This document shows, piece after piece, positions 11,731 to 51,515 of a stretch of 64,000 nt of DNA (position 1 is its first letter; the number at the start of each line of letters is the position of its first letter). This DNA comes from Escherichia coli. GTDB lineage: Bacteria > Pseudomonadota > Gammaproteobacteria > Enterobacterales > Enterobacteriaceae. A program made the position numbers and the translations under genes. The notes under the pieces were generated by a model that saw nothing but the letters and a program-made list of their open reading frames with translations, was not told where the DNA came from and made no database searches. Where the stretch lies: NCBI RefSeq assembly GCF_022846255.1, contig NZ_AP025682.1; one strand, given 5' to 3'.

Positions 11731-11945
11731 TATAAGCACATCATATTCTGTTGAGTATATGTCGATTTTATAATGTCATGTTCATGCAGATAATATCATA
11801 AGTAACATTAGTTGAACAAGAACAGAGTTGTAACAGATAAAGATCTCGTTGTTAGTTACATGATCTGATAAATGTTAGCATGAAATAGTAACTATATGAA
11901 GGATATAAGAACCTGTATCATAATGTCATATGCGTTATATCTGAT

Positions 11946-12707: not shown

Positions 12708-13204
12708 AAAAAAATAACATATGATTTCTTACCAATGCTAAATAGTATACCCCAATCTTTATTAATGCATAGTGATGCTTAATCATTATGTTGCAGTTGA
12801 TCGACACAGGGGGACAAGAGTAGTTGTGTCACTGCCACATCACCCGGCATGCGATTTCACATCGGGATGTTCGAGAAGCATCAATGCTGCGCCCAAGATC
12901 CACCGAAAAGAAACGTGGGAATCACCGGCGGTGGGATTCATTGTCTATGCCCGTGTAGATTAGTGTGGATTTGCTGCACAGATGGTTCCGGTCTGAGAAA
13001 TGGGTAAATTCGTCGTTTACGACGGGAAGCTGCCTACACATGTTATACATCGTCTTCGTGTATCAACATGCTCCTATAAACTCGACTCAACTCACATTTT
13101 TCATTTCACATTGTAAAAACCTTTGACATGCAGAACCTTATTCTGATTCATTATATTCAACATGAAGAACTTTTGTTCCATATACAGAACTTAGTGAGAG
13201 CGAT

Positions 13205-14104
13205 ATGTTGACAGCGTTTAGAGGTATTTTTCCGCCGGTTCCTACTATTGTTGACGCACAGGGGAAACTGGATAAGACGGGTATGGCCCGAATGATTGAC
13301 CATGTAATAGAGAATGGTGCAAACGGAATGCTGATCCTAGGCAGTGGGGGCGAATTCTCACAATTTTCTTCCCAACAACGAAAAGAGATAGCAGCATTTT
13401 GTTTAAATCATGTAGATGGAAGAGTGCCTGTACTGGTGGGGGTTGCTTGTGCCGGGACAGCAGAAACTATTGAGCTGGGACGCCATGCTTATGAGCACGG
13501 AGCTGATGGTGTGCTGGTTGTTAATCCGTATTATGCAAAACTCAGCGATGATGCCCGGTTTATGCATTATAAATCTATTGCTGATACACTTGAAATCCCG
13601 GTGTTTCTCTATAACTTTCCTGATTTAACCGGCCAGGATATTGGACTTGAAGTCATTACCCGGCTGGCCCGGGAAGTTCCTAATATCGTGGGTATCAAAG
13701 ATACAATCGATAACATCAGTCATACCCGAGAAATTATCAACCGTGTACATTCATTTCGTCCGGATTTCATTATATTCAGTGGTTATGACGAATATATGCT
13801 GGACACTCTGTTACTGGGTGGTCATGGCGGTATTCCGGCAACATTCAATTTTGCTCCGGAAATCACACGGGGTATTTATCAGGCTGTTATGGAAAATGAT
13901 CTTGATAAGGCGCGTTATTTCCAACAACAACTGGCAAAATTGTCTCCGTTGTATGCGCTTGAGCAACCTTTCTTTGGGGTGATAAAGACCGCCATCAAAC
14001 TGAGTGGACTGGACATATCTACTGCAGTTATGGCACCGGCTCTTCCGCTCAGTGATGAGAAAATATCCAGAGTAAAATCCATTCTGGAACAAATTCATCA
14101 GTAA
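13205..14104 (+). CDS. DapA/NAL-family class I aldolase/dehydratase (2-keto-3-deoxy sugar acid type)
   Basis: 299-aa ORF; GSGGEFSQ and NFPDLTGQD...VGIKDT motifs; ~50% identical by eye to the YjhH-like ORF at 29909-30814. Confidence 0.85.
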   Translation: MLTAFRGIFPPVPTIVDAQGKLDKTGMARMIDHVIENGANGMLILGSGGEFSQFSSQQRKEIAAFCLNHVDGRVPVLVGVACAGTAETIELGRHAYEHGADGVLVVNPYYAKLSDDARFMHYKSIADTLEIPVFLYNFPDLTGQDIGLEVITRLAREVPNIVGIKDTIDNISHTREIINRVHSFRPDFIIFSGYDEYMLDTLLLGGHGGIPATFNFAPEITRGIYQAVMENDLDKARYFQQQLAKLSPLYALEQPFFGVIKTAIKLSGLDISTAVMAPALPLSDEKISRVKSILEQIHQ

Positions 14105-14120
14105 TCACGAGGGACGCAGG

Positions 14121-15638
14121 ATGAATAACTCTCAGGTACTCAAACTCAATAATCTGGATGATGTTGTGATTGCCATAACAGAGCTTCCTGCCGGAAGCTG
14201 GTTGAAGGCAGAAAATATCGAAACGCGTGACCTTATTCCGGCCGGACACAAAATTGCTCTTCGTGATATTCCTGCTGGTAGTGCGGTTAAGCGCTATGGA
14301 CAAATTATCGGCTTTGCCACTCGTGATATCCGCCAGGGGGAACATATTCATGTTCATAATCTCGGTATGGGAAATTTTGAACGTGATTATGCCTGGGGAA
14401 TAGACAGCCATCTTCCTGAGCGGGATGTCCATCAGGATACTTTTATGGGGATCAGAAGAAAAGACGGGCGAGTGGCAACCCGTAATTTTATCGGTGTGCT
14501 GAGTTCGGTGAACTGTAGCGCAACCGTGGTCAGAGCCATTGAGGATCATTTCCGTACCCGAGGCCTGAGCGATTACCCGAATGTTGATGGTATTGTCGCA
14601 TTGCCTCAGAGCTTCGGCTGCGCCTTTGGCTCTAATACTGAAATGATGAAAGTCATGCGGAGAACGATAGCAGGCTATGCCACTCACGTAAACTTTGCCG
14701 GGATTGTGATAGTGGGACTGGGATGTGAATCATTCCAGATTAAGGACATGATGAATGCCCATGGACTACATGAAAACCCGATGTTTCATACACTGACAAT
14801 TCAGGAAAGTGGCGGAACACGCAACGCTATCGAAAAGGGTATTTCGTTTATTCTTGATATGCTGCCGGAAGCCAACAATGTTAAACGTGAACCTGTTCCA
14901 GTGTCAGAAATTATCCTGGCCCTTGAGTGTGGTGGCTCAGACAGTTACTCAGGAATTTCTGCCAACCCGGCACTCGGTTATGCAGTTGATCGTCTGGTCC
15001 GTCAGGGAGGGACGGCCATTCTGTCCGAAACATCAGAAATCTACGGAGCTGAGCATCTTCTGACACGCCGTGCTATTAATCGTGAAGTGGGAGAAAAGCT
15101 AATCCGCAGGATTAAGTGGTGGGAGGAGTACTGTAAACGTACGGGTAGTGAAATGAATAACAATCCCTCCGCAGGTAATAAAGCGGGAGGGCTGACTACT
15201 GTTCTGGAGAAATCACTGGGTGGAATCGCTAAAGCCGGGACAACCAGCTTAATGGATGTGTATGAATATGCTGAACCTGTAACAGCAAAAGGGCTTGTCT
15301 TTATGGATACCCCCGGGTACGACCCGATGGCGGTAACTGGGCAAATTGCCGGAGGCGCTAATCTACTGTGTTTTACCACGGGTAGGGGATCTGCCTTTGG
15401 AGCAAAACCCACGCCTTGTCTGAAACTGGCGACCAATAATGCATTATGGCAACGACAGCGTGATGACATGGATTTAAACTGTGGCACGATCGTTGATGGT
15501 GAAGAAACGATTGAACAGGTAGGGGAACGTATTTATCAGAGAATTATTGAGCTGGCTTCAGGTAACCGTAGCCGAAGTGAAGAACTTGGGTATGGGAGTC
15601 TGGAATTTGTTCCTTGGATAATGAACTCAATAATGTAA
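14121..15638 (+). CDS. UxaA/GarD-family sugar-acid dehydratase (altronate/galactarate dehydratase-like)
   Basis: 505-aa ORF; SD GAGGGA; N-terminal SAF-like region and C-terminal dehydratase region typical of this family (recalled). Confidence 0.75.
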   Translation: MNNSQVLKLNNLDDVVIAITELPAGSWLKAENIETRDLIPAGHKIALRDIPAGSAVKRYGQIIGFATRDIRQGEHIHVHNLGMGNFERDYAWGIDSHLPERDVHQDTFMGIRRKDGRVATRNFIGVLSSVNCSATVVRAIEDHFRTRGLSDYPNVDGIVALPQSFGCAFGSNTEMMKVMRRTIAGYATHVNFAGIVIVGLGCESFQIKDMMNAHGLHENPMFHTLTIQESGGTRNAIEKGISFILDMLPEANNVKREPVPVSEIILALECGGSDSYSGISANPALGYAVDRLVRQGGTAILSETSEIYGAEHLLTRRAINREVGEKLIRRIKWWEEYCKRTGSEMNNNPSAGNKAGGLTTVLEKSLGGIAKAGTTSLMDVYEYAEPVTAKGLVFMDTPGYDPMAVTGQIAGGANLLCFTTGRGSAFGAKPTPCLKLATNNALWQRQRDDMDLNCGTIVDGEETIEQVGERIYQRIIELASGNRSRSEELGYGSLEFVPWIMNSIM

Positions 15639-15705
15639 TAACACAGGGCAGAGTTTATCCTGCCCTGTTGAAGTAAACACCGTTTTAGATAATTAGAGGT
15701 GAATA

Positions 15706-16713
15706 ATGGAACAGAAACCTGTGTTGGGAATTTTTTTAGGTGAAGCTGCCGGTATCGGACCAGAATTGATTGCTAAGGTTGTTGCTGATGGTACTGTCTA
15801 TAAATATTGCAGACCCGTTCTGATTGGTGATGCCCGTGTTCTTGCTCTTGGACAAAAGATTGCGGGTGTTCATTTTCAATGGGATGTAATAAGTGACCCA
15901 TCAGAGGCAGACTGGAGCACAGGAAATGTACCATTACTTGATTTAAAAAATTTCAACCCCGAAAAACTAACTATGGGGACCATTGATACCGATTCAGGTT
16001 ATGCAACCGGGGAATCATTGGTAACCTGTATGTCATTACTCAAATCAGGAAAGATTGATGGTTTTGTTTTTGCTCCATTGAATAAAGAGGCGTTCAAGAA
16101 AGGGGGCTGGGATATTGAAGACGAACATTATCTGTTTGCAGAGCAGTTAGGATGCCTGGATAGACCTCGCGGCCTGTTGAATGTCCTGGATGATCTCTGG
16201 GTTTTCCGTGTGACCGGACATATTCCGTTCAAAGATATTGCCAGCCATATTACTCCAGAAAATGTTAGCCGTTCGATTCAGTTATGCTATGACACACTAC
16301 GTATGGCAGCTATTGAAAATCCGCGAATTGCAGTTGCTGCACTTAATCCCCACGCCGGGGATGGTGGAACCTGCGGCACCGAAGAAATAGACGTGCTCAT
16401 TCCAGTAATTGAAAGTTTTCGAAAGAAAGGAATGGACATGTATGGGCCAGTTCCAGGTGACACCATTTTTATTCATGCGTTTAATCATGAATATGATGCG
16501 GTTGTTACCCTGTTCCATGACCAGGGACAAATTGCTACTAAACTGCATTCCTTTGACGTGGGAATAACTGTTGCCGCAGGACTTCCGTTCGCTATTACAA
16601 CACCAGAACATGGCACTGCATTTGATATTGCAGGTAAGGGGATCGCAAAAACAATGGCTACAGAGAGGGCTATTGCCGTGGCGGCCAGAATGGCTTCTAC
16701 AACACATAAATAA
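15706..16713 (+). CDS. PdxA-family NAD-dependent dehydrogenase (PdxA2-like)
   Basis: 335-aa ORF; SD AGAGGTG; PdxA-type pattern (AALNPHAGDGG..., HDQGQIA). Confidence 0.75.
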   Translation: MEQKPVLGIFLGEAAGIGPELIAKVVADGTVYKYCRPVLIGDARVLALGQKIAGVHFQWDVISDPSEADWSTGNVPLLDLKNFNPEKLTMGTIDTDSGYATGESLVTCMSLLKSGKIDGFVFAPLNKEAFKKGGWDIEDEHYLFAEQLGCLDRPRGLLNVLDDLWVFRVTGHIPFKDIASHITPENVSRSIQLCYDTLRMAAIENPRIAVAALNPHAGDGGTCGTEEIDVLIPVIESFRKKGMDMYGPVPGDTIFIHAFNHEYDAVVTLFHDQGQIATKLHSFDVGITVAAGLPFAITTPEHGTAFDIAGKGIAKTMATERAIAVAARMASTTHK

Positions 16714-16983
16714 AAATTCATAATAGCAGATAATATAATGTCTAATCTATACAGATAGATGTGAATATTATCTGCGTTATAATAAACTGTATAAGGCTAT
16801 TATAAATAACAGTCGGTGTTTTGATAAGTTGCTGGTTGTTATATCTTTAAAACGAGTTGATGATATTTATTTACTAGATATTCAGTGCGATTATAGCAGT
16901 ACTGTATCGCAAGAAAATAGCAGTGCTGGGGAAGTAGAAAGAATAAATTGCGATTTGCATGCTCATAGATAAGGATAGATCTC

Positions 16984-18342
16984 ATGTATTCAGAATCATT
17001 TGTGATGATAAGTGGGCTTGTTGCAATAGTTATACTTATCATCTTGATCACCCGATTTAAGCTTCATCCTTTTTTTTCATTGCTTATATCGTCTGTATTT
17101 TTGGGAATTGTGAACAATATTGGAGTGGCGAAAAGTGTAGATATATTTACGCACGGGTTTGGTAGTCAACTGTCTGTCACGGGGGTAGTTATCGGCTTAG
17201 GCGCAATGTTGGGGGGGCTATTGGTACAGTCTGGAGGAGGGGACAAAATAGCCGATATTATTATTGGGTCTAGAAAAATTGTTTGGATGCCTCTGTGTAT
17301 TGGTATAGTTTCGTTAATCATCGGTCTACCTAACTTGTTTGAAGTTACTTTTGTACTGATGGTACCCCTTGTGTTCTCTATTACCAAACGTTTGGGGTTA
17401 CCTGTTCTCAGAGTTGCACTCCCAATGTCTGCAGGATTAATGACAGCTCATGCGTTATTACCGCCTGGTCCGGCAACTATTATCGCTGCTACGGCTTATG
17501 GTGCCAGCATCGGAGAAACTACGCTTTATGGGGTGATTATTAGTATACCTGTTCTACTCTCAGGAGCTTATCTTTTCCCAAAAATAATGCACAAACATCT
17601 TAACGTGGGAGAACCTTTGGCACTGAATGAAACTGAACATAGACGGGGAAATAACGAACGTCAATTATATCGCCAACCATCGCTGACTGTCGCTTTGATA
17701 ACAGTTATGATCGCCCCTTGTCTGATGATTGTTGGGACTATTGGACTTGACTTTTTGCCAAAAACAGGTGTGGTCACAGAGGTATTCCAGGCACTAGGCA
17801 ATCCAGTAATAACTCTTGGACTTGCTCTGGTTTATGCCATGATATTTCTGGGACGGGGAGTGGGTTTTAGTAATGAAGAAATCCTGTCTATCAGTAAGAA
17901 AAGTATTGTGCCTATTGTTGGTTTGTTGCTAATTATCGGTGGAGGCGGTGGATTAAAAAACATACTAACAGCAATTGGTCTAAGTGATATTATCAGTAAC
18001 TTTGCTACGGATTGGTCTATTCCTCCGCTATTATTTGCATGGCTGGTGGCAGCTATTTTCCGCATTGCGCTTGGCTCTGGAACGGTGGCGGTCTCAGCTT
18101 CAGGAGGAATCGTTGCCGCGTTACTTACAGCACATCCAGAAACTAACGCAGCTCTATTGGTACTTTCAACTACGACTGGGGCAATGATTTTTTCACATGT
18201 CAGTGATGGGGCATTTTGGTTATTCAAAGAATACTTTGGACTTAGCGTACCACAAACTATTCGCACATGGAGTTATTTAGTCACGATACAGTCCATTGTC
18301 GGGCTTATAGGTGTATTGGTTCTAGGCGCTATTCTCAGTTAG
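16984..18342 (+). CDS. GntP-family (gluconate:H+ symporter family) permease
   Basis: 452-aa polytopic ORF with GntP-type motifs (LPPGPATIIAA...; IIGGGGGLK). Confidence 0.85.
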   Translation: MYSESFVMISGLVAIVILIILITRFKLHPFFSLLISSVFLGIVNNIGVAKSVDIFTHGFGSQLSVTGVVIGLGAMLGGLLVQSGGGDKIADIIIGSRKIVWMPLCIGIVSLIIGLPNLFEVTFVLMVPLVFSITKRLGLPVLRVALPMSAGLMTAHALLPPGPATIIAATAYGASIGETTLYGVIISIPVLLSGAYLFPKIMHKHLNVGEPLALNETEHRRGNNERQLYRQPSLTVALITVMIAPCLMIVGTIGLDFLPKTGVVTEVFQALGNPVITLGLALVYAMIFLGRGVGFSNEEILSISKKSIVPIVGLLLIIGGGGGLKNILTAIGLSDIISNFATDWSIPPLLFAWLVAAIFRIALGSGTVAVSASGGIVAALLTAHPETNAALLVLSTTTGAMIFSHVSDGAFWLFKEYFGLSVPQTIRTWSYLVTIQSIVGLIGVLVLGAILS

Positions 18343-18427
18343 TGGTTCTGTATTCAATATATAAGAAAGCAATATCAAGTTTTAACATCTTTAATTTAAT
18401 AGATATAGTATTAAAGGAGAGTAATTT

Positions 18428-19693
18428 ATGTCCTCCAATGAGAAAGCAACAAATATAAGATGGAGAATATTTTTTGTACTTTTTCTTCTTGTTGTTGTCA
18501 GTATGATTGATCGAGCCTCAATATCTATAGCTATGCCTACTATCGCTAAAGATTTGGGATTAAGCGATACGATGCAGGGATTAATACTAAGCGGTTTTTT
18601 CTGGACTTATGCTTGTATGCAAATACCCGGTGGGTTTCTGGCCGATAAATTTGGGGCAAGAATTGTACTGACATGTTCTGCCATTATTTGGGGAACTGCA
18701 GAAGCCTTATTAGGATTATGCCCAACAGGTTTCGCTTTACTTGCTGCTAATCTATTGCTTGGTGCAAGTGAAGCACCTGTGTTTCCCTCAGGCGCTAGAC
18801 TTAATGCAATTTGGTTAAATAAAAATGAAAGAGCTCGTGGAGCAACATTAATGGATGCCGGAGGTCCATTTGGGGCTGCAATTGGTGGAATATTAGTAGC
18901 TGAAATGATGCTTTATTTTGCATCGTGGCGGGTTACATTCATTATCTGTGGTGTTGCGGCTATCACTCTGGGGTTAATAGCTTACTGGATTATTCGCGAC
19001 AAACCTGAAGATTCACCAAATGTAAATGATAAAGAATTAAGTATTATTAATCTCGATCGTGTTGAGCAACATATAGTAGCAGAAAACAATGAGCCATTAT
19101 TAAAGGTTATTCCTCTACGTTCTTTTATTGGTATGCTTTTAGGTCGTTGTTCATGGGCAATGTGTTTCTTTGGTTTATTAACCTGGGGACCAGGATATCT
19201 TACACGAGCATTAAATCTGGATTTAAAAGCTGTTGGTTTTGCCACAATGATTATATTTTGCGCAGGTGGTTGTGGTAGTCTTTGTGGCGGATGGCTGGCA
19301 GATAAACTCGCAAGTAAAGGATTTGGGCGAGCTAGAACGTGTAAATTTCTATTAACTGTATCAGGTATCTGTACACTAATATCATTTGCTTTATTACCAA
19401 GCATACCAGATGTAAAAACATCAATTATTCTGCTGTCCTGCGCCGCGTTTGTTTTGATGTGGGGTAGTATGTACTGGACGTTTCCTCCTTTATTAGCTCC
19501 CCGTTCCCGTGTAGCTACTGTCGGGGGCATGATGAATATGGCTGGAAGTGTTGGAGGTATTTGCATTCCACTATTGGTAGGACTTATTTTGGATGTGACG
19601 AACTCATTCAATCCTGTACTCTACTTTTTTGCTGGTTGTGCTGTAATATTTATTTTAATGACTAATATTATCGATTTACGACACGTGCGATAG
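18428..19693 (+). CDS. MFS transporter (anion:cation symporter-type, sugar-acid transporter-like)
   Basis: 421-aa ORF; SD AAGGAGAG; 12-TM MFS pattern with MIDRASISIAMPTIAKDLGLS N-terminal signature. Confidence 0.85.
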   Translation: MSSNEKATNIRWRIFFVLFLLVVVSMIDRASISIAMPTIAKDLGLSDTMQGLILSGFFWTYACMQIPGGFLADKFGARIVLTCSAIIWGTAEALLGLCPTGFALLAANLLLGASEAPVFPSGARLNAIWLNKNERARGATLMDAGGPFGAAIGGILVAEMMLYFASWRVTFIICGVAAITLGLIAYWIIRDKPEDSPNVNDKELSIINLDRVEQHIVAENNEPLLKVIPLRSFIGMLLGRCSWAMCFFGLLTWGPGYLTRALNLDLKAVGFATMIIFCAGGCGSLCGGWLADKLASKGFGRARTCKFLLTVSGICTLISFALLPSIPDVKTSIILLSCAAFVLMWGSMYWTFPPLLAPRSRVATVGGMMNMAGSVGGICIPLLVGLILDVTNSFNPVLYFFAGCAVIFILMTNIIDLRHVR

Positions 19694-19702
19694 GAGATAA
19701 AC

Positions 19703-20653
19703 ATGAACATCAAGCCACTAAATTTATATGATGGCCCTGTAATTGATGCGCATCATCACTTCTGGGATCCGATAGAAAATGATCATCCTTGGCTAAAGCC
19801 GGATGTTTTAATTCCTTTTAGATATGGTGATTATACGGCGATTAAGAAAAAATATTATCCTGAAGATTATTTTGCAGATGTAGGTGATATTAATGTCGTT
19901 GAAACCTGTTATATGGAGACTGAATGGAATCCAGCGGATCCATGTGGTGAAAGCGATTTCATTACATCAGTAGCAAAAATGACAGGTTATCCAAATGCTG
20001 TTGTCGGACAGGCTTGGTTAAATCATGATGATATAGATTCTGTGTTGAAGATGCAGAGTTCATATGAGTTGATGCGAAGCATCAGGCATAAGCCAGAGGG
20101 GCCTGATAAACCAGAGGATGTTGGATCGTATACAACTCTGATGAGTGATGAAAGATGGCGATATGGGTATTCATTACTTTCAAAATACAATCTAATGTTT
20201 GATCTGCAAACCCAGTGGTGGAATTTGCATGAAGCTGTAAAACTGGCAAATGATTTCCCAGACACAGTAATAATCCTTAATCATACAGGGCTCCCTGCAC
20301 AACGTTCTGTTGAAGGGTTGGCCGGGTGGCATTCAGCAATGGCTTCTTTGGCTGAATGTGAAAATGTGATGGTTAAAATATCGGGTATAGGTTTAAAAGG
20401 GATTCCATGGACAGTGGAGAATAATCTATGGATAATATCTGAAACGTTATCAATGTTTGGTCCTGACAGGGTCATGTTTGCAAGTAATTTCCCCGTGGAC
20501 AGTCTTTGTGGCAGTTTCAGTGATATATTTCATGGCTTTATGACTGTTTGCGAGATGAAAGGGTATTCACATGCGGCTCAGCGGAAAATGTTTCATGACA
20601 ATTGTAAGAGAATCTATCGAACAATCCCACCAAGTGAATTGAAGGAAGTATAG
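19703..20653 (+). CDS. Amidohydrolase_2-family metal-dependent hydrolase (lactonase/decarboxylase type)
   Basis: 316-aa ORF; SD AGGAG; N-terminal DAHHHFWDP metal-binding motif typical of this family. Confidence 0.7.
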   Translation: MNIKPLNLYDGPVIDAHHHFWDPIENDHPWLKPDVLIPFRYGDYTAIKKKYYPEDYFADVGDINVVETCYMETEWNPADPCGESDFITSVAKMTGYPNAVVGQAWLNHDDIDSVLKMQSSYELMRSIRHKPEGPDKPEDVGSYTTLMSDERWRYGYSLLSKYNLMFDLQTQWWNLHEAVKLANDFPDTVIILNHTGLPAQRSVEGLAGWHSAMASLAECENVMVKISGIGLKGIPWTVENNLWIISETLSMFGPDRVMFASNFPVDSLCGSFSDIFHGFMTVCEMKGYSHAAQRKMFHDNCKRIYRTIPPSELKEV

Positions 20654-20805
20654 CTGATAATCATATTTAATGATATCTGAGGTTTATTATTGTATAACTC
20701 ATGGAAATTCATGATTCGTAAATGTGAGTTATATCTATATGCTGTTGAATAGTGATACGCAAGAAGCACATAAAAATATAACATAATAATACTCCGTAAA
20801 CATTT

Positions 20806-20834
20806 CCCCCTTTTAAAAGAGGGGGAGTTTTTAT
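20806..20834 (+). terminator. rho-independent terminator after the acid-sugar operon
   Basis: GC stem CCCCCTTTT/AAAAGAGGGGG followed by AGTTTTTATT. Confidence 0.6.
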
Positions 20835-20972
20835 TGTCATTGCTATACCATAGCTTGGAGAGGATTATTGGAATGGTAGAAGAGTCATTATGAGATAATA
20901 TTATTATCTGAGCTGGCCCCCTGAAATACCAGACAGTAGATGTATCTTAAAATAAGAGATAGGCTTGGATAT

Positions 20973-21368
20973 ATGTCTAACACTAGTTCTAATTTTGAGA
21001 TGGCTGGCGTTTTGTTAGGAAAAGAGGTGCGTAAACGTAAAACACCTCAGGAAAAAATCGCAATTATTCAACAGACTATGGAGCCGGGCATGATGGTGTC
21101 CCACGTGGCGCGTTTGCATGGAATTCAGCCCAGTCTGTTGTTTAAGTGGAAGAAACAATACCAGGAAGGAAGCCTCACTGCTGTGGCTGCCGGTGAAGAC
21201 GTTGTTCCTGCTTCTGAACTGACCGCTGCAATAAAGCAGATTAATCAGCTTCAGCGTTTACTGGGTAAGAAAACCATGGAAGTTGAGATCCTCAAAGAAG
21301 CGGTGGAGTATGCACAATCGCGAAAATGGATAGCGCATGTGCCCTTGTTACCTTCGGACAAGGAATAG
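20973..21368 (+). CDS. IS2-group transposase OrfA
   Basis: HTH OrfA homolog of IS2 InsC ([24 protein letters not shown]...). Confidence 0.75.
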
Positions 21369-22207
21369 CCCCGGTAAGCCGTGTTCTGGGCGTGTCACGT
21401 GCGCAGTTAACATTACGGATGAAGGCATCTGATAACAAGCCAGATAAACGGCGCCAGAGGCGCGATGAGGCTGCGGATGCAGAAGTCTTATCGCGCATCC
21501 TGGATATCATTGGCGATATGCCAGCATACGGGTATCGCCGTGTCTGGGCGATACTCAGGCGGCAGTCCCGAAATGAAGGACTACCGTTCGTGAATGCAAA
21601 GCGTGTTTACCGGATAATGAGCGAAAATAGTCTGTTGTTGTTACATGACAAACCATCACGACGGCAGCGGGAACATAAAGGCCGAATATCGGTGAAGGAA
21701 AGCGACCAGCGTTGGTGTTCCGATGGCTTTGAGTTCGGTTGCGATGATGGCGAAAAACTGCGTGTTACGTTCGTCCTGGACTGTTGCGATCGTGAAGCCA
21801 TAGACTGGGTCGCAAGCACGGGAGGTTACGATAAAGCGACAGTGCAGGATGTGATGTTAGGAGCGATAGAAAAACGCTTTGGCGATAAAGTACCGGAACA
21901 GTCCATCCAGTGGCTGACAGATAACGGTTCAGCGTACAGAGCGCATGAAACACGGCAGTTCGCCAGAGAGCTGAATCTGAAGCCCTGCACAACAGCAATC
22001 AGTAGCCCTCAGAGTAATGGAATGGCAGAACGGTTCGTGAAAACGATGAAGGAAGACTACATCGCGTTCATGCCGAAACCGAATGTAAGAACGGCATTGC
22101 ATAACCTTGCAGTGGCGATCGAGCATTACAATGAAAACCATCCGCATAGTGCGTTGGGTTATCGCTCTCCGCGAGAATATCGACGTCAGCGGGTAATGTT
22201 AACTTAA
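21326..22207 (+). CDS. IS2-group transposase OrfB (DDE catalytic)
   Basis: 293-aa ORF homologous to IS2 InsD; overlaps orfA in the -1 frame. Confidence 0.75.
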
Positions 22208-22311
22208 GATACAACCCCTGTCTGGAAATAAGGGGGCAAGAACACCGTCTCAGATCTGTTTTCAATGAAAACAGATCATTCTGGAACTACTCGTCCCAGT
22301 TACTTGAAGCG

Positions 22312-23397
22312 ATGTCCATTCTTCGTCCGAACGAAAATCTTGCAGCAGCTCTCAGCGATGATTCAGAGTTCAGCAATAGCATGCAGTTCAGGTTAATCCT
22401 GGCAAAGACTGTTGATGCAGGAGCCCCGGTTCCAGCGGATCTGGCTCTGACGTGGGTGACAAACCATATTGAATACTCATTACGAACCCCCGCCCGCCGC
22501 TGTGCGAAAGAATTTGCTGCACTATTTAAACGGCGTTACACCCTTAAATACGGTGAAGGGATGGTAGTGAAGCCGAATAAAGCGCGTCTGCGTTTAGATT
22601 ACACGCCTGCAAGTCCCAGTTTGAGAGGTATTCGGCTTCCTGTTCCTGACTTGCCTGATCCAAGTGCATTGAAAGGCCCTGTTCAGAAGCTTATGACTCT
22701 TGCTGATATATGCACAGATGAACTGGATGCTTACAGTCGTTACCTTGGTAGAAAAGGCACTTCAGCAAATGATACCGCTGCAATTTTGTTGCTGCCTTCA
22801 GAAATCGTTAACGAAAGCGCAGATAAATTATTAAGTGCATTCAAACGCTGGGCTGATGACGCGATCCTCAGTAAGGGGGGAGTAGTTTCAGTTGCTGACT
22901 TCTGGTCACACATGAATGCTACCTGTCCGGCAAAGATCAACAAAAAAGAGGCCGACTTGATGCAGGCCTTTGCACAGAAAATGGGGTACTGCCTGGCTCC
23001 TGACCCCTATTACCACCACGTAAAAGCAAATGTCGATGGTGTTCTTGTTTTATTCCCTGCTGGTGAAAGTGGCCGCTTCTCTCCTTCTCCTGAATTTATC
23101 ACAGCTGTATTGACGCTCCGATTAGGTTCGGTAGTCGCCTTGATTGACAATTCTTTCGATCAAGCCGAACAGAAAGTGCTTGAGAATGCCATCAACAACA
23201 ATGTCAGCTTCAGCGATGATGAAAAGCGCTCTCTGCACGCATATTTAACGTGGCAGCTTCATACCCCGGCGAATATGACGGGAATGAAAAGCCGGATTGA
23301 ATTACTCGGTGCAGCGGAAAAATCAGCTGTGGGTAAGGTTATCGTTAGTGTCGCTTGCTCTGACGGCAGAATTACGCCTGCCGAAATCAAACTGTAG
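22312..23397 (+). pseudogene. TerB-domain protein gene remnant, 3'-truncated by the IS911-like element
   Basis: 361-aa ORF; C-terminal TerB-like repeats (VALIDNSFDQAEQKVL; VSVACSDGRITPAEI); TAG stop 23395-23397 overlaps the IS left end; frame stays open upstream into the preceding IS, so the 5' end may also be lost. Confidence 0.5.
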
Positions 23398-23464
23398 TGG
23401 CACACTGAATTTGGCCACCTGAACAGAGGTGATATGCTCACCTCAGAACAACACAGGTGCTCCA

Positions 23465-24633
<1,169 letters not shown>

Positions 24634-25056
24634 CCACTACAAATATCATTATATTGGAATAATTATAAAACTGAACAAAATGGTCAATGTAATCTGGTTA
24701 ATTTATAAATATTTACATTGCGTGATGATATTTAATTCCAGTGTTAAGTAATGTCACATGCCTATTATTGGTTACTACTTTGTAGGTGTTTTGGTTCGGC
24801 GTTAATATCATTGGTCATAATCACCTGTGAAAGTTTATTCTTGAAATGTTATAGGTATATTACTTGCAATTAAAAATGAGAAATTTATTATTATTGTGTT
24901 TTGCAAATATAATAATTAAAAATTTATTATAAATTATGATTAGAACTGACAATATAAAAGAATAATAAAACTCAATATGAAAATAATTATCATCTGGTAT
25001 GATACTTTTGCTGTTGATTACAGGAATAAAGTGTCAGAATAATATTGTTATTGGGT

Positions 25057-25084
25057 AAAAAAAGCCTCCACTATATGTGGAGGC
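25057..25084 (-). terminator. hairpin GCCTCCAC-TATAT-GTGGAGGC with flanking A/T run (terminator-like, minus strand)
   Basis: Perfect 8-bp stem, 5-nt loop; AAAAAAA on plus strand gives a U-run after the stem on the minus strand; ~700 bp downstream of int. Confidence 0.45.
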
Positions 25085-25758
25085 AAACCCTTAGATAGTT
25101 CTATTGAGGCAAGTATGTTATAAATCTGCCTTATCTTTTATAGCATATAAAGATATGTATGCTATATTGTTTTTTGAAGAAATTTTTCCAGAAATTACAG
25201 TAATACAAGAAATATTAACCGGTGTGATTTTTGGATGTTTAATAAGTACAGTGTAGTGTACTTATATTTTTGTAATAAAGATGAACGCGTCCTTTAGATA
25301 AACTGAAAAATATTAAGCATGTCTCATGTGGTTTTCTGAATCAAAACTCTTTTCAGTCTTTGGTTTTTTGTTAAAAACAGGTTTATTGCAAGGGTGTTGT
25401 TGTGAAATGTGTTTTGGTGTCGTTGTGATTTTATGGTGATAATGTGAATTTTTATCCTTTCAAGATGGCTCCCTGGACGTTAAATACAGTGGAAATTTAT
25501 ATTAAGATATAAATATAACTATTGCGTTATTTAAATTATTGTCTATTACAGCTCCAGTTAATAGAGCCTGAAGTAATTTCTTAGTATTTCATCATAAGCG
25601 TTTATCTATCGTCTCTTTCTAAATTAACCGGTCGTATTACAAGGTGCTGAATCTGATTAAGGAATGATACTTAGGGGATTATGGCTGACTTAATAATTAG
25701 ATAACTGATAAATGACTATCAGGGGGATATCGTTAAGTCAGCCTTTAAAATCAAGCGA

Positions 25759-26949
25759 TTATATAGCTGGTGACTCTTTTCGAAGAGCATCAAGGTAGTC
25801 AGCGTACCATTGCATCATTTCTCGTCTTCCTTCAAGGTAACGAGCATGGTTGTATGTACCACGAATGCTGTTTTTGTCCGTATGTGCAAGTTGCATTTCA
25901 ATCCATGCACTATTGAATCCTTGCTCGTGTAGAACAGTACTCATTGTATGACGAAATCCATGCCCGGTAGCTTTTTTGTCATAGCCAATCTTCTTCAAAA
26001 CCATATTGACGCTTGCATCGCTGATAGGCCTGTTAACATCATTTCTTCCGGCAAAGATGTATCTGTATCTTCCAGTCAGTTCTTTGAGGATTTGCAGAGA
26101 CTGGATTGCCTGATCTGACAGAGGGACGATATGCTCCTTCCTCATTTTCATCCGGGTCGGAGGAACTTCCCATATCTTTTGGGTAAAATCGATCTCACAC
26201 CATTCCCCCATACGTAATTCTACTGTTCTCAGCCCTGTGAGCATCAACAATTTTGTAGCTTCACGGGTTACAATACTGCCGGTGTAGTTTTCGAGTTTGT
26301 ATAAAAACTCTGGTAGTTCAGGAGGAAGCAGGAAAGGGTAATGTGTTCGCTTATAGCTTTTCATTGCTATAACCAGATCAGAAGCTGGATTGTATCGTGC
26401 CCGACCTGTAACAATGGCATACCGAAACACTTCACCACATCGTTGGCGAACTTTATTAGCTAGCTCGCAGGCTCCTCGGCTTTCGATACGCTGAAGAACT
26501 GCGAGAAGTTCAAGAGGTTCGATTTCACTAATGGGTCTGTTTCCAATGTAGGGAAACACATTATTTTTGAATGCTCTGTCGACATAATCAGCGTAGCTGG
26601 CAGACCAGCCTGAAACTTTTGCGTTGTACCACTCGGTGGCGATTGCGGCAAAAGTTCTTCCTTCGGAAAGGTTTTTCTCAAGATTTTCAGCTTTCTTGAC
26701 TTCACCGGGATCTTTACCATCGGCATGTATTTTCTTGGCTTCATCCCGACGTTTGCGAGCTTCAGCCAATGTAATAGTTGGATAGGTGCCAAATGATAGT
26801 TTCTTTTCCTTCCCCGCATAGTGGTACTTCATTCGCCAGTACTTTGAGCCGTTAGGATTGACCTGAAGGTAGAGCCCACCACCATCGGCAATCTTATAAA
26901 TTTTATCTTTGGGTTTGGCTGTTTCAACTTGTCGAGCTGTCAGTGGCAT
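25759..26949 (-). CDS. int: P4-type tyrosine integrase (internal copy)
   Basis: ORF 25759-26976; likely start ATG 26949 (MPLTARQVETAKPKDK...) with SD GAGG; P4-family N-terminal pattern and C-terminal catalytic R...HxxR...Y region. Confidence 0.85.
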   Translation of the reverse strand: MPLTARQVETAKPKDKIYKIADGGGLYLQVNPNGSKYWRMKYHYAGKEKKLSFGTYPTITLAEARKRRDEAKKIHADGKDPGEVKKAENLEKNLSEGRTFAAIATEWYNAKVSGWSASYADYVDRAFKNNVFPYIGNRPISEIEPLELLAVLQRIESRGACELANKVRQRCGEVFRYAIVTGRARYNPASDLVIAMKSYKRTHYPFLLPPELPEFLYKLENYTGSIVTREATKLLMLTGLRTVELRMGEWCEIDFTQKIWEVPPTRMKMRKEHIVPLSDQAIQSLQILKELTGRYRYIFAGRNDVNRPISDASVNMVLKKIGYDKKATGHGFRHTMSTVLHEQGFNSAWIEMQLAHTDKNSIRGTYNHARYLEGRREMMQWYADYLDALRKESPAI

Positions 26950-27076
26950 CTGGGGGCCTCGCAATAGATTGACCAAGATGTGCCCCTAAATAGGCCCCCA
27001 AATGTGACTTGATTTACGTTCCCCTGAGGAGAATTAAGGCGACTATTTGAGTAACATAAGTAAGGGTATGTGCTGA

Positions 27077-27640
27077 TTATAAAGGCTTTTTGTGGGGTAT
27101 GGTAGATTTCAGGAGAGGTGTGCATGGTGTCCCCTGCAGAATGATGTAAACACCTGCTGCGAAGGTAATAGATTGCATGATGGAGAACATGAACCAGTTT
27201 TTACCACCACTAAGCTCTTTCACCACATCTGCACGCGCAAACAGGCACGTCACCAGGAAAATTATGCTCATGGTAAAAGAGATAGCAACCGGCGTGTCGC
27301 GCAAGAACAGCAGACTTTTCGGCACATTCATGTCTTCAGTCGAGTGGTCTTTATTACCAAACTTGCTGCCGATGAAACCGGCCAATACATAATATAATGT
27401 TGAGAAGTGGCCGATGGCAACGTCATCAGAACCGGTCACTTTCTTCATGTACGGATGCGCAATAGCCGGGAAAAAGACCATTGCCACGCCAACAACCAAA
27501 GAGCCAACGGCTATAAGCGTAATGCCGGTCATGCCTGCTGTTGCCAGAATTACCGCTACCATCATCGACATAAACAACGTGTGATGACCGGTCAGGAAGA
27601 TAAATTTCCACGGTGTGAAACGGGCAATCAGAATGTTGAT
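27077..27640 (-). pseudogene. PTS EIIC internal fragment (ascorbate/galactitol-superfamily permease; possibly sgc-derived)
   Basis: Membrane ORF fragment resembling the UlaA/SgaT-type EIIC core; no native N- or C-terminus; abuts the rpe-like fragment in opposite orientation. Confidence 0.5.
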
Positions 27641-27642
27641 AA

Positions 27643-28014
27643 CCATCAGAACCGCTGGACTATCCCTCGGAAACGTTAGCTGAGATCCGCCATACCGGCG
27701 CACGAGCCGGGCTGGCATTTAATCCGGCGACCCCAATCGACGCCTGGCAATATCTAGCGTCTGAGCTGGACGGCGTGATGGTGATGACCTGTGAGCCCGA
27801 TGGGCACGGACAGCGGTTTATTCCCTCTATGTGCGAGAAAATCCAAAAAGTACGCACGGCTTTTCCTCAGACCGAGTGCTGGGCCGACGGTGGAATTACG
27901 CTGGCGGCAGCACAGCAACTGGCTGCAGCCGGGGGGCAGCATATGGTGATTGGGCGCGTCTTGTTCTTTTCATCTGACTATCGCGCGACCTTAGCTCAAT
28001 TCGCCACCCTGTAA
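27643..28014 (+). pseudogene. ribulose-phosphate 3-epimerase-like (sgcE-type) 3' fragment
   Basis: In-frame translation ...AGLAFNPATP...PDGHGQRFIPSMCEKIQKVR...ADGGITLAAAQQLAAAGG... matches the C-terminal ~120 aa of Rpe-family proteins; N-terminal two-thirds absent. Confidence 0.7.
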
Positions 28015-28030
28015 GAGGAGATTGTTTCTG

Positions 28031-28813
28031 ATGAGCCAACAGAGACCTGACCGTATCAAACAGATGCTGCACTACCTGTGGCAACATCGTCACCTCTCCA
28101 CACAGCAGGCCATGGAGCTTTTTGGCTATGCGGAGGCGACTGTCCGTCGTGATTTTCAGTATATTGCCAACCAGTACCCAGGAATGATCCGCGGTCACGG
28201 TTGTCTCGACTTCGACGACAGTACTGACGACAAAGAGTACGTTTTCGATGTGAAACGTACATTGCAATCTGTGGCGAAGAGAGAAATAGCCGCCCTTGCC
28301 CGAACGATGATCAAAGATGGCGACTGCTTTTTTCTCGACTCCGGCTCAACCTGCCTCGAACTGGCGAAATGCCTGGCCGATGCACGGGTGAAGGTCTCCT
28401 GCAACGACATTAAAATCGCCAATGAGCTGGGCTGTTTTCCCCATGTGGAAAGCTATATTATCGGTGGACTGATTCGCCCGGGTTATTTTTCGGTAGGAGA
28501 GAGTCTGGCGCTGGAGATGATCAATGCCTTTTCCGTAGAACGTGCGTTTATCTCCTGCGATGCGCTGTCGCTGGAGACGGGGATCACCAATGCCACCATG
28601 TTTGAGGTCCGGGTGAAAACACGGATTATTCAACGCTCGCGTGAAGTTATTCTCATGGCCGAACACTCAAAATTTGATGCCGTTGAGCCGCATGCTGTAG
28701 CAACACTCTCATGTATTAAAACGATCATTAGTGACAGCGGGTTACCTGAGACTATTGCACAGCGTTATCAGCGAGCCGGATGTCAGTTGTTTTTACCTCA
28801 TTCAATAAAGTGA
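28031..28813 (+). CDS. sgcR: DeoR-family transcriptional regulator SgcR-like
   Basis: ORF with SD AAGAGGAG 10 nt upstream of ATG 28031; DeoR-type HTH and sugar-phosphate-binding C-terminal domain; resembles K-12 SgcR as recalled. Confidence 0.8.
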   Translation: MSQQRPDRIKQMLHYLWQHRHLSTQQAMELFGYAEATVRRDFQYIANQYPGMIRGHGCLDFDDSTDDKEYVFDVKRTLQSVAKREIAALARTMIKDGDCFFLDSGSTCLELAKCLADARVKVSCNDIKIANELGCFPHVESYIIGGLIRPGYFSVGESLALEMINAFSVERAFISCDALSLETGITNATMFEVRVKTRIIQRSREVILMAEHSKFDAVEPHAVATLSCIKTIISDSGLPETIAQRYQRAGCQLFLPHSIK

Positions 28814-29115
28814 TAGGTAAGTTCGTTCGAGAGGGATTTCAAGCAAAAACAATCAATGGCACCCAATAGAAAATATTGGCGATGCGCTCGAACGAATAAA
28901 GAAGCCCTATGCGCAATCCACACGCTACGATGTTGCAACAACACTCCATCTACTTTTTATTCTCATTCACTAAATGTGGCTGTTCTGGATTCATTATTCA
29001 AAGTGTGTACAAGATCACATTTAATCACTTCATTACGGTTCAGCATGCTGAACAAAGCATATTTTCCACTATGTAATGCCGATACCATTTATTCCATGAG
29101 CAAGGAGGAGCCATT

Positions 29116-29904
29116 ATGGTTCGCAAAGGGTGTAATTCATTAGTCCGTGCTGAAAAAATATTAACCCACATTGCATGGGTTGGTATGGCAAGTTATATGG
29201 AGTTATTAAATAAATTTCAGTACCCAAAAAGCAGCCTGCTTAATTTATTGAATGTAATGGTGGAGTGTGGTTTCTTAATTAAAAACAAAAACGGCTACTA
29301 TTCACTGGGAATAAAAAACTACGAATTGGGTTGTCAGGCGTTACACCGCCAAAATATATTTGAGGTGACTAAGCGGCCAATGCAGGAGTTGTCGCTGAAA
29401 AGTGGACTGGTTTGTCATCTTGGGGCGATGGAGAGCATTTCGGCTATTTATCTCGACAAGATCGAAAGTCCGGACTCTGTACCGACGAGCAAAAGCTGGA
29501 TTGGCAAAAAACTTGAGTTGCATATTACCGCGTTGGGTAAGGCATTATTAGCCTGGAAGACACGAGAAGAATTAGATTATTTTTTAGAAGCACTCACGTT
29601 AACTCCGCATACGCGCAATACATTTACCGATAAAAAATCATTTCTGGAAGAATTACAAAAAACACGCCTTCGGGGATGGGCCATAGACAACGAAGAATCA
29701 ACCTATGGTGCGGTATGTTTAAGTATGCCGGTATTCAATATGTATAACAGAGTTAACTATGCAATCTCACTTTCTGGCGATCCGGTAATTTATTCAGGAA
29801 ATAAGATAGACAGCTATCTGGAGTTGCTCCGGAAATGCACAGGGCAAATATCATATGGGCTGGGATACAGAAACGAAAATGAGCATTTACGAAAAGGAAA
29901 CTGA
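29116..29904 (+). CDS. yjhI: IclR-family regulator (YjhI-like)
   Basis: 262-aa ORF; paralogous to the IclR at 11946-12707; stop overlaps SD of the next gene. Confidence 0.8.
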
Positions 29905-29908
29905 GGTA

Positions 29909-30814
29909 ATGAAAAAATTCAGCGGCATTATTCCACCGGTATCCAGCACGTTTCATCGTGACGGAACCCTTGATAAAAAGGCAATGCGCGAAGTTGCCGA
30001 CTTCCTGATTAATAAAGGGGTTGACGGGCTGTTTTATCTGGGTACCGGTGGTGAATTTAGCCAAATGAATACAGCCCAGCGCATGGCGCTCGCCGAAGAA
30101 GCTGTAACCATTGTCGACGGGCGAGTGCCGGTATTGATTGGCATCGGTTCCCCTTCCACTGACGAAGCGGTCAAACTGGCGCAGCATGCGCAAGCCTGCG
30201 GCGCTGATGGTATCGTCGCCATCAACCCCTACTACTGGAAAGTCGCCCCACGAAATCTTGACGACTATTACCAGCAGATCGCCCGTAGTGTCACCCTACC
30301 GGTGATCCTGTACAACTTTCCGGATCTGACGGGTCAGGACTTAACCCCGGAAATCGTGACGCGTCTGGCTCTGCAAAACGAGAATATCGTTGGCATCAAA
30401 GACACCATCGACAGCGTTGGTCACTTGCGTACGATGATCAACACAGTTAAGTCAGTACGCCCGTCGTTTTCGGTATTCTGCGGTTACGATGATCATTTGC
30501 TGAATACGATGCTGCTGGGCGGCGACGGTGCGATAACCGCCAGCGCTAATTTTGCTCCGGAACTCTCCGTCGGCATCTACCGCGCCTGGCGTGAAGGCGA
30601 TCTGGCGACTGCCGCGACGCTGAATAAAAAACTACTACAACTGCCCGCTATTTACGCCCTCGAAACACCGTTTGTCTCACTGATCAAATACAGCATGCAG
30701 TGTGTCGGGCTGCCTGTAGAGACATATTGCTTACCACCGATTCTTGAAGTTTCAGAAGAAGCCAAAGAAAAAGTCCGCGCACTGCTGTCCGCGCAAGGTA
30801 TTTTATCGGACTGA
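29909..30814 (+). CDS. yjhH: DapA-family 2-keto-3-deoxy-pentonate (xylonate-pathway) aldolase YjhH-like
   Basis: Start ATG 29909 (MKKFSGIIPPV...) with SD GAGG; GTGGEFSQ, NFPDLTGQD, GIKDT motifs. Confidence 0.85.
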   Translation: MKKFSGIIPPVSSTFHRDGTLDKKAMREVADFLINKGVDGLFYLGTGGEFSQMNTAQRMALAEEAVTIVDGRVPVLIGIGSPSTDEAVKLAQHAQACGADGIVAINPYYWKVAPRNLDDYYQQIARSVTLPVILYNFPDLTGQDLTPEIVTRLALQNENIVGIKDTIDSVGHLRTMINTVKSVRPSFSVFCGYDDHLLNTMLLGGDGAITASANFAPELSVGIYRAWREGDLATAATLNKKLLQLPAIYALETPFVSLIKYSMQCVGLPVETYCLPPILEVSEEAKEKVRALLSAQGILSD

Positions 30815-30824
30815 GGAGAGGATC

Positions 30825-32792
30825 ATGTCTGTTCGCCATATTTTTGCTGACGAAAGTCGCGATATCTACACCGTCAGAACCCACGCAGATGGCCCTGACG
30901 GAGAACTGCCTCTGACGGCGGAAATGCTCATCAACCGCCCGAGTGGGGATCTGTTCGGGATGACCATGAATGCCGGAATGGGCTGGTCTCCGGACGAGCT
31001 GGATCGGGACTGTATTCTACTGCTCAGCACACTGGGAGGGGTACGCGGGGCAGACGGTAAGCCCATCGCGCTGGCGTTGCATCAGGGCCACTACGAGCTG
31101 GATATCCAGATGAAAGCGGCTGCGGAGGTAATCAAAGCGAACCGTGTCCTGCCCTATGCCGTCTATGTTTCCGATCCGTGCGACGGACGAACTCAGGGTA
31201 CGACGGGTATGTTTGACTCGCTACCGTACCGTAATGACGCCGCCATGGTGATGCGTCGTCTTATCCGCTCTCTGCCCGATGCAAAAGCCGTCATAGGCGT
31301 GGCGAGCTGCGACAAGGGACTTCCGGCCACCATGATGGCGCTTGCCGCGCAGCATAACAAAGCGACGGTGCTGGTGCCCGGTGGCGCGACTCTACCCGCA
31401 GGGGATGGGGAAGATAACGGCAAGGTGCAGACCATCGGTGCCCGCTTCGCCAATGGCGAGTTATCACTACATGATGCCCGCCGTGCGGGTTGTAAAGCCT
31501 GTGCCTCCTCCGGCGGCGGCTGCCAATTTCTGGGCACCGCCGGGACATCACAGGTAGTAGCTGAAGGATTAGGACTGGCTATCCCGCACTCAGCACTGGC
31601 CCCATCCGGCGAACCGGTGTGGCAGGAGATAGCCAGAGCCTCCGCGAAGGCGGCGTTGAACTTATGTAAACAAGGCATCACCACCCGGGAAATACTTACC
31701 GATAAAGCGATTGAGAATGCGATGACGGTCCATGCGGCGTTCGGTGGTTCAACAAATCTGTTGCTGCATATTCCGGCGATTGCCCATCAGGCCGGCTGCC
31801 ATATTCCAACCGTTGACGACTGGATCCGCATCAACAAGCGGGTGCCCCGACTGGTAAGCGTACTCCCCAATGGTCCGGTTTATCACCCGACAGTGAATGC
31901 CTTCATGGCGGGAGGTGTGCCGGAGGTGATGCTGCATCTTCGTAGTCTGGGATTGCTGCATGAAGACGTGATGACGGTCACCGGCAGCACGCTGAAAGAA
32001 AACCTGGACTGGTGGGAGCATTCCGAACGGCGTCAGCGGTTCAAACAGCTTCTGCGCGAACAGGAGCAGATCGATGCCGACGAGGTGATCATGTCGCCAC
32101 AGCGGGCACGGGAGCGCGGCCTGACCTCAACGATCACTTTCCCGGTGGGCAATATTGCCCCGGAAGGGTCGGTTATCAAATCCACCGCCATCGATCCCTC
32201 GGTGATTGATGATCGGGGCATCTATTACCATAAAGGCGTGGCGAAGGTTTATCTGTCCGAGAAAAGCGCGATTTACGATATCAAGCACGAGAAGATTAAA
32301 GCGGGCGATATTCTGGTCATCATCGGCGTTGGCCCTTCCGGCACCGGGATGGAGGAAACCTACCAGGTCACCAGCGCCCTGAAACATCTGTCCTATGGCA
32401 AGCATGTTTCACTGATCACCGATGCGCGTTTCTCGGGTGTTTCCACGGGAGCCTGTATCGGCCACACAGGGCCAGAAGCACTGGCCGGAGGGCCAATCGG
32501 TAAATTACGCACCGGAGATATTATTGAAATTAAAATTGATTGTCGCGAGCTTCAGGGCGAAGTCAATTTCCTCGGAACCCGTAACGATGAAACATTACCC
32601 TCACGGGAGGAGGCCACCGCAATATTAAACGCCCGACCCAGTCATCAGGATTTACTTCCTGATCCTGAACTGCCAGATGATACCCGACTCTGGGCGATGC
32701 TCCAGGCGGTAAGCGGCGGGACATGGACGGGTTGTATTTATGATGTAAATAAAATCCGCACGGCCTTGCGCGATTATATGAATAAAAACTGA
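30825..32792 (+). CDS. yjhG: IlvD/EDD-family dehydratase (D-xylonate dehydratase YjhG-like)
   Basis: Start ATG 30825 (MSVRHIFADE...) with SD GAGGAGAG; ~655 aa; IlvD/EDD signature with Cys-rich cluster (CDGRTQG, SCDKGLPA). Confidence 0.85.
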   Translation: MSVRHIFADESRDIYTVRTHADGPDGELPLTAEMLINRPSGDLFGMTMNAGMGWSPDELDRDCILLLSTLGGVRGADGKPIALALHQGHYELDIQMKAAAEVIKANRVLPYAVYVSDPCDGRTQGTTGMFDSLPYRNDAAMVMRRLIRSLPDAKAVIGVASCDKGLPATMMALAAQHNKATVLVPGGATLPAGDGEDNGKVQTIGARFANGELSLHDARRAGCKACASSGGGCQFLGTAGTSQVVAEGLGLAIPHSALAPSGEPVWQEIARASAKAALNLCKQGITTREILTDKAIENAMTVHAAFGGSTNLLLHIPAIAHQAGCHIPTVDDWIRINKRVPRLVSVLPNGPVYHPTVNAFMAGGVPEVMLHLRSLGLLHEDVMTVTGSTLKENLDWWEHSERRQRFKQLLREQEQIDADEVIMSPQRARERGLTSTITFPVGNIAPEGSVIKSTAIDPSVIDDRGIYYHKGVAKVYLSEKSAIYDIKHEKIKAGDILVIIGVGPSGTGMEETYQVTSALKHLSYGKHVSLITDARFSGVSTGACIGHTGPEALAGGPIGKLRTGDIIEIKIDCRELQGEVNFLGTRNDETLPSREEATAILNARPSHQDLLPDPELPDDTRLWAMLQAVSGGTWTGCIYDVNKIRTALRDYMNKN

Positions 32793-32898
32793 AAGCAAAA
32801 ATAAAAATATCCAGACGCCTGAATTATCCGGTTACGCATTATTCATCCTGTGCGCAGCCGGATAATGACGGCTCGTTACCCTATAATGAGAGGACGTT

Positions 32899-34248: not shown

Positions 34249-34397
34249 TCGGGTTCTTGCCAGTGAGCCAACCTGTTGTTCACTGTCCCCCATAATTTAG
34301 TGAGTGACGGCAACCGTCTGCACGGTGACGAATCGCTGGCGATCAAAAAGGGGCGATATTGAACCGTCGATTATGCTTGTTGAGTGTACTCTCAGTA

Positions 34398-34436
34398 ATA
34401 CTGTAAAGCCGGAGCATGTCTCCGGCTTTACAGTAT
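34398..34436. repeat. perfect 16-17-bp inverted repeat TACTGTAAAGCCGGAG-CATGT-CTCCGGCTTTACAGTA
   Basis: Seen directly; no U-tract on either strand, so not a canonical terminator; lies between yjhF and the SorC regulator gene. Confidence 0.9.
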
Positions 34437-34594
34437 GGGGGAACAGCGGGCGATCGCTCAAATGGTATGCTGGTTTATTTCATGTAAAAGAATAAAATAT
34501 CTGTATAAAATCATGCCACTGGCAATCTGCATCAACTCTCCGGGTAAACAGGGTTAAGATGAGCATTTCCCCGGTTTAATACAGGTATACAAAA

Positions 34595-35581: not shown

Positions 35582-35593
35582 AAGAATGAACTA

Positions 35594-35625
35594 CTGCCCC
35601 ATGTGGATATGGGGCAGGATTTTAT
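35594..35625. terminator. bidirectional rho-independent terminator
   Basis: Stem CTGCCCCAT / ATGGGGCAG with 6-nt loop, followed by GATTTTATT; sits between convergent genes. Confidence 0.6.

Positions 35626-50285: not shown

Positions 50286-51515
<1,230 letters not shown>

Follow-up and report, generated by a model that had tools for sequence, protein, structure and literature searches.

An internal piece of the Shango gene sngA between two IS3-family elements in a decayed Escherichia coli genomic island: a very probable IS-made pseudogene

What kind of gene is an open reading frame of 361 codons that lies, on the plus strand at 22312-23397, between two insertion sequences in Escherichia coli DNA? 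The window, as we call the whole stretch of 64,000 nucleotides that was analysed, had been given a sequence-only reading, in which this ORF was a truncated TerB-domain gene between an IS2-like and an IS911-like element. Both elements were found, each of them complete (the IS2-like one being ISEc48), with DNA of the gene sngA between them. The exact 361-aa protein is deposited from E. coli as BDH31980.1 and GDA43011.1, 'hypothetical protein', the longest contig being 4.94 Mb, and the identical sequence is carried by at least 23 contigs from several samples. Comparison with intact relatives makes it very probable that the ORF is a piece (codons 226-609 of 769) from the interior of sngA, which encodes the TerB-domain protein of the Shango system, and that this piece represents a non-functional pseudogene made by insertion sequences.

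The remnant DNA occupies 22245-23392 (+), beginning with position 3 of codon 226 and ending with position 1 of codon 609 in the 769-codon gene, and the first codon of the ORF corresponds to internal Met249 of SngA. By blastn this segment was 99.56% identical over 1148 nt, with no gaps, to positions 12001-13148 of the sngABC locus of E. coli FDAARGOS_536 and to positions 16714-17861 of the argW island of E. coli 201609 (NZ_CP048107.1), while tblastn of SngA against the window aligned residues 227-608 at 98.7% protein identity. Among 5426 complete RefSeq E. coli genomes, megablast matched 22245-23392 in 446, across at least 80% of the query in 442 of these; the best of the matches, at 99.6% identity, bear the annotation 'TerB N-terminal domain-containing protein'. 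An ungapped match of this length and identity to an annotated gene, together with the 442 matching genomes, excludes chance similarity.

In FDAARGOS_536, sngA (2310 bp, 769 aa; PADLOC SngA, 4.4e-103) is followed by sngB, which encodes a 438-aa ATP-binding protein, a BrxC/D-type P-loop ATPase (PADLOC SngB, 2e-187; Pfam BrxC_BrxD, 2e-151), and then by sngC, which encodes a 732-aa DEAD/DEAH helicase (PADLOC SngC, 5.2e-277; Pfam DEAD and Helicase_C). The sngABC genes are said to have been described by Millman and colleagues in 2022 and by Johnson and colleagues in 2023. In FDAARGOS_536 as well as in 201609, sngB lies directly downstream of sngA and sngC is present too, and in the former their starts overlap or nearly overlap the preceding gene; the PADLOC models used for Shango were PDLC03958-03960. 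Shango has been reported in E. coli as a three-gene TerB/ATPase/helicase anti-phage system (bioRxiv 10.1101/2022.05.11.491447), and in P. aeruginosa PA14 it lowered the efficiency of plating 10-100-fold (PMC10250203). How TerB-domain defence proteins act was still called unclear in 2025, the idea proposed being membrane surveillance (10.1101/2025.09.30.679545). The earlier suggestion that an intact version of the gene might belong to an uncharacterised system can be set aside, since the intact version is SngA of Shango, which is modelled in PADLOC and experimentally validated. At 17630-21650 of the FDAARGOS_536 locus and 22343-26362 of the 201609 island, sngABC is followed by genes for a conserved protein of 338 aa that matched nothing in Pfam or PADLOC and for a 786-aa protein in which HsdR_N is the sole domain. 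These two proteins may constitute another defence module, possibly the ApsAB-like pair described in a study of E. coli genomic islands that carry Shango beside complete or partly deleted ApsAB-like systems (PMC11096173). Both genes are deleted in the window.

The domain content of the fragment reflects its position within the gene. In intact 769-aa SngA, whose N-terminus (MELWIFIVAIYLIYILF) is hydrophobic (mean Kyte-Doolittle hydropathy of 1.88 for residues 1-19), Pfam detected TerB_N at 98-309 (1.4e-49), TerB at 519-624 (29.1 bits) and TerB_C at 644-768 (3e-27), all three above cut-off. The fragment lacks this architecture: residues 20-61 match just the last 42 positions of TerB_N (166-207 of 207; 18.8 bits, below cut-off), residues 271-360 match positions 7-97 of the 118 in the TerB profile at 23.1 bits versus a cut-off of 24.4, and no TerB_C was found by Pfam. 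A TerB domain is thus detected by HMM, just under the cut-off, as a single partial copy, and what had been described as TerB-like repeats is this one truncated domain plus the TerB_N tail. The sole PADLOC match of the fragment was SngA (PDLC03958; 1.7e-23, 82 bits, profile positions 183-374 of 528), and an NCBIfam scan of it returned nothing meaningful (best E = 0.17).

The left boundary is formed by a complete ISEc48 element of the IS3 family (20909-22244, +; 1336 bp), which has TG...CA ends (TGAGCTGGCCCCC...GGGGGCAAGAACA) with terminal inverted repeats that are present and imperfect, and which carries orfA (20940-21368, +) and orfB (21326-22207, +). RefSeq copies annotated 'IS3-like element ISEc48 family transposase' agree with it at 99.4-99.6% identity, and the domains HTH_Tnp_1, HTH_21, rve and rve_3 were assigned to its genes as seen in another contig with the same junctions (L002, see below). 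To judge from the resemblance of its end sequences, it would belong to the IS2 group. Its right end adjoins codon 226 of sngA. The right boundary is a complete IS3-family element at 23393-24641 (+; 1249 bp), also with TG...CA ends (TGTAGTGGCACACTGAATTTGGCCACC...CCACTACA, the left end being given as well as TGTAGTGG), with orfA at about 23429-23767 (+) and orfB at 23794-24633 (+). Full-length copies of it in E. coli are 99.6% identical and are recorded as an unnamed 'IS3 family transposase', and about 130 bp at its left end agree at about 96% with elements that carry the annotation IS911 family; the element resembles IS911 without being IS911 itself. Neither element is flanked by a target-site duplication, the flanks being ttatc/ISEc48/ccgtc on the left and aac/IS911-like/aat on the right. 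As possible recombination partners, the window holds diverged relatives of the two elements alone (64-67% identical), at 3860-5044 and 50288-51545.

As the sequence-only reading stated, the frame of the ORF is open upstream into the left element, back to a stop codon at 22147-22149 within ISEc48, and between that stop and 22312 there is no in-frame ATG, GTG or TTG. At the other end, homology to intact sngA stops at 23392, and the TAG at 23395-23397 is formed by nucleotides 3-5 of the IS911-like element, inside its terminal repeat; the stop codon is therefore supplied by the IS end, and the claim that it arises at this junction proved accurate. In the 361-aa ORF the TAG and the two sense codons before it come partly or wholly from the IS, and the uninterrupted sngA frame left in the fragment amounts to 382 codons, so that some residual expression through IS read-through is conceivable. 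That an ORF survives at all is due only to the chance that the sngA frame runs open from Met249 to the TAG within the IS911-like terminal repeat. A scan of 22000-23500 for promoters and terminators found no plus-strand sigma-70-like promoter and no terminator, inspection of the sequence upstream of the ATG at 22312 found no convincing Shine-Dalgarno sequence, and an Rfam scan of the window gave no match in or near 22312-23397.

The gene has been shortened from both sides. At the C-terminal end 160 codons are gone, comprising the end of TerB and all of TerB_C, and full-length homologues run 160 residues beyond the point at which the fragment stops; the earlier statement that at least the 3' end is missing was thus sound on this side and incomplete on the other, where homology starts at 22245 and 225 codons, with the hydrophobic N-terminus and most of TerB_N, have been lost too. 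Full-length family members do not have their natural limits at these positions, and neither condition that the sequence-only reading named for refuting the truncation, homologues that stop at the same point or the lack of a TerB domain by HMM, was borne out. When SngA, SngB, SngC and the two downstream island proteins were compared by tblastn with the whole 64-kb window, the sole match was SngA 227-608, and there were no other pieces of sngA, and no sngB or sngC, elsewhere in the 64 kb. Relative to the FDAARGOS_536 allele the fragment contains five substitutions, all non-synonymous, and no indels. R239W, T301I, I421L and D488N, again all non-synonymous, are private to the remnant with respect to two intact alleles, whose 5.8-kb operons differ mutually at just 7 sites. 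The ratio of five non-synonymous to no synonymous changes relative to FDAARGOS_536 has P = 0.27 under neutrality, so that the pattern is compatible with relaxed constraint and statistically weak. Because both domains are cut, the hydrophobic N-terminus is lost, no promoter is recognisable and partner genes are lacking, the remnant should, to judge from its sequence, confer no defence.

Comparison with the argW island of E. coli 201609 indicates where the missing parts belonged. To the right of the IS911-like element, the window contains the integrase-proximal end of an argW-type island (24642-27139, -), consisting of an AT-rich spacer, a P4-type tyrosine integrase (25759-26976, -) and the last 15 nt of tRNA-Arg (27125-27139, -; TGGTGTCCCCTGCAG). 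This segment is 99.6% identical to positions 27985-30477 of the 201609 island, on the same strand and on the same side of sngA; in that island the integrase block lies approximately 10.1 kb downstream of the matching sngA segment. Three blocks are colinear between island and window, all on the plus strand and with their order kept: island 2061-2480 with window 21825-22244, which is the 3' 420 bp of an ISEc48 remnant that has the same right end; island 16714-17861 with window 22245-23392, the sngA fragment; and island 27985-30477 with window 24642-27139, the spacer, integrase and tRNA-Arg end. Between the first two blocks the window lacks 2481-16713 of the island (14.2 kb, including the 5' part of sngA), a gap that starts exactly at the ISEc48 right end. 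Between the second and the third it lacks 17862-27984 (10.1 kb), a gap that starts just as exactly at the left end of the IS911-like element, which has taken the place of the sngA 3' end, sngB, sngC, the 338-aa hypothetical gene, the HsdR_N gene, an IS3 copy and a papB remnant. In total, about 24 kb of the island interior is absent from the window, and the ancestral-type argW island remains intact in E. coli 201609 and FDAARGOS_536.

Adjacent deletion by IS3-family elements, or recombination between IS copies, is expected to leave exact break-point junctions without a target-site duplication. Both gaps probably arose in one of these ways, by IS-mediated adjacent deletion or by recombination between two copies of one IS; each of these routes would account for the absence of a target-site duplication at both elements. 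Among the 5426 complete RefSeq E. coli genomes, no record covered any of the three junctions, and no simple-insertion intermediate with a target-site duplication was present. The order and mechanism of the deletions are accordingly inferred rather than observed, as no intermediate with an IS at the break point and the rest of the island intact was found.

Eight contigs of independent assembly (L002-L009) contain the same double junction, from ISEc48 through sngA to the IS911-like element, at 99.96-100% identity, and because of this recurrence the arrangement is, on the evidence of these assemblies, real and stably inherited. In one of them, L009, colinearity with the window extends beyond the IS911-like right end, as far as position 24718. 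Another, the metagenome contig L002 (ENA ERZ927457 k127_7117), is identical to the window up to 3 nt past that end (...CCACTACA/AAT/TGTAGTGGTCAAG...) and then passes directly into the terminus of another IS3-family element, whose place in the window is 25.6 kb away (50288-51545, -); the stretch concerned is L002 8290-8561, compared with window 24641-24644 and 50287-50515. This second element is 64.6% identical to the IS911-like element. L002 thus implies a variant that lacks window 24645-50287 and has two IS ends tail-to-tail, 3 bp apart, and L009 keeps the arrangement of the window. Within the element at 50288-51545 there is also a full-length Rfam match (135 bits) to the Hfq-binding sRNA isrC at 51355-51477 (-).

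Insertion sequences are a classic source of misassembly, and the divergence of L002 only 3 nt after the IS911-like element could be taken to mean that IS repeats had misjoined an intact sngA locus to unrelated sequence, making the bracketing of the fragment an assembly artefact. We consider this scarcely credible, because both sngA/IS junctions recur at 100% in assemblies made from different reads and by different assemblers (ENA metagenomes, Logan and two NCBI genomes), L009 continues colinearly past the IS911-like right end to 24718, and the protein is annotated on a contig of 4.94 Mb. An origin from TerB of terZABCDE, or from another TerB-containing system such as Bunzi or Dionysus, rather than from Shango, has in its favour that Pfam TerB is common to all of these. 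Such an origin is exceedingly improbable as well: the fragment is 99.56% identical in nucleotide sequence to a gene that stands in a sngA-sngB-sngC operon, its only PADLOC match is SngA, and the TerB_N and TerB_C flanks and the 769-aa length of the intact protein are traits of SngA, unlike those of a small stand-alone TerB.

The alternative that deserves somewhat more thought is that the truncated protein is produced, perhaps by read-through out of the ISEc48 transposase gene, and has an independent role, that of a dominant-negative or decoy SngA, for instance, or that of a TerB stress protein acting alone. The ORF is whole over 361 codons, its frame is open into ISEc48, and at least 23 contigs, from several samples, preserve the identical sequence. 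Against this, there is no in-frame start before Met249, no promoter-like site and no clear Shine-Dalgarno sequence; TerB is cut and below the Pfam cut-off, with TerB_C and most of TerB_N gone; the window offers the protein neither partner genes nor another Shango system to act on; and its private changes are all non-synonymous. In addition, the carriers are 99.96-100% identical across the flanking insertion sequences too, an indication of recent clonal descent, not of selection. We therefore regard expression with an independent function as very improbable, and give slightly less weight still to its more specific form, in which read-through from ISEc48 would yield a transcript of the fragment and this E. 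coli lineage would have kept it as a shortened TerB protein; such a protein might hinder an incoming Shango system or serve by itself as a membrane or stress factor.

The IS-made sngA pseudogene resides in a window that is itself composite. A tRNA-Phe gene at 61022-61097, an adjacent integrase (59562-60824) and a DUF554 (yqgA-like) gene mark a pheV-type island with mostly metabolic and transport genes, and the window is a mosaic in which a piece of argW island (20909-27139) is embedded in this pheV-linked island, bounded by ISEc48 on the left and by a cut PTS EIIC gene on the right. The body of tRNA-Arg has been replaced by a truncated PTS EIIC-GAT ORF (27077-27718; Pfam profile positions 96-268 of 394), and since just 15 nt of tRNA-Arg are left with this ORF in its place, the argW piece has no intact attachment tRNA. 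To the left, 11938-20666 contains a sugar-acid-type cluster (a UxaA-family hydrolase, MFS and GntP transporters, a PdxA-family dehydrogenase, an amidohydrolase and a DHDPS-family protein) with ISEc48 as its right neighbour. With its counterparts in 451 E. coli genomes the cluster shares only about 86.7% identity, and it is probably a divergent allele that was acquired horizontally; for window 27132-36000, which holds yjhG/F/U/H/I, the identity to E. coli is 98.5%. IS elements are numerous throughout the window. Further IS3-family copies or remnants are found at 3860-5044, 42317-43564 and 46478-46766, of which one is 67% identical to ISEc48 and another matches, at 97.9% identity, the IS3 copy that follows the HsdR_N gene of the 201609 argW island.

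For annotation, the ORF that is now deposited as 'hypothetical protein' (BDH31980.1) is properly labelled a sngA (Shango) pseudogene, and a strain that carries it is not to be scored as Shango-positive. The locus also provides an example of the erosion of defence islands by IS3-family elements: approximately 24 kb, including a complete and validated anti-phage system, are gone, with both gaps extending from IS ends. How SngA works with the SngB ATPase and the SngC helicase is a question for the intact relatives, on which the remnant gives no handle. The system is already known, and the fragment is an ordinary dead gene piece in a decayed E. coli genomic island.

Its relation to known systems can be stated in the same terms. 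With SngA of Shango the fragment shares 98.7% of its protein and 99.56% of its DNA sequence over residues 227-608, as well as a match to the SngA HMM; however, it represents the middle half of SngA alone, and without sngB and sngC there is no Shango system in the window. With the argW islands that carry Shango, as in 201609, the window has in common the integrase, the AT-rich spacer, the tRNA-Arg 3' end (99.6%), the sngA allele, the ISEc48 remnant upstream, and their order and orientation, but about 24 kb of the interior is absent here, and the piece sits in a pheV-linked island rather than beside an intact tRNA-Arg. The TerB helical domain (PF05099) is shared with TerB of terZABCDE, which is a small stand-alone protein of the ter operon, whereas in SngA the domain forms a single part of a 769-aa protein with TerB_N, TerB and TerB_C; the window ORFs that were examined included no ter genes. 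Finally, the signature left at this locus is that of truncation and adjacent deletion by IS3-family elements such as IS911 and the IS2 group, and there is nothing unusual in it, two different insertion sequences having trimmed one gene from both sides.
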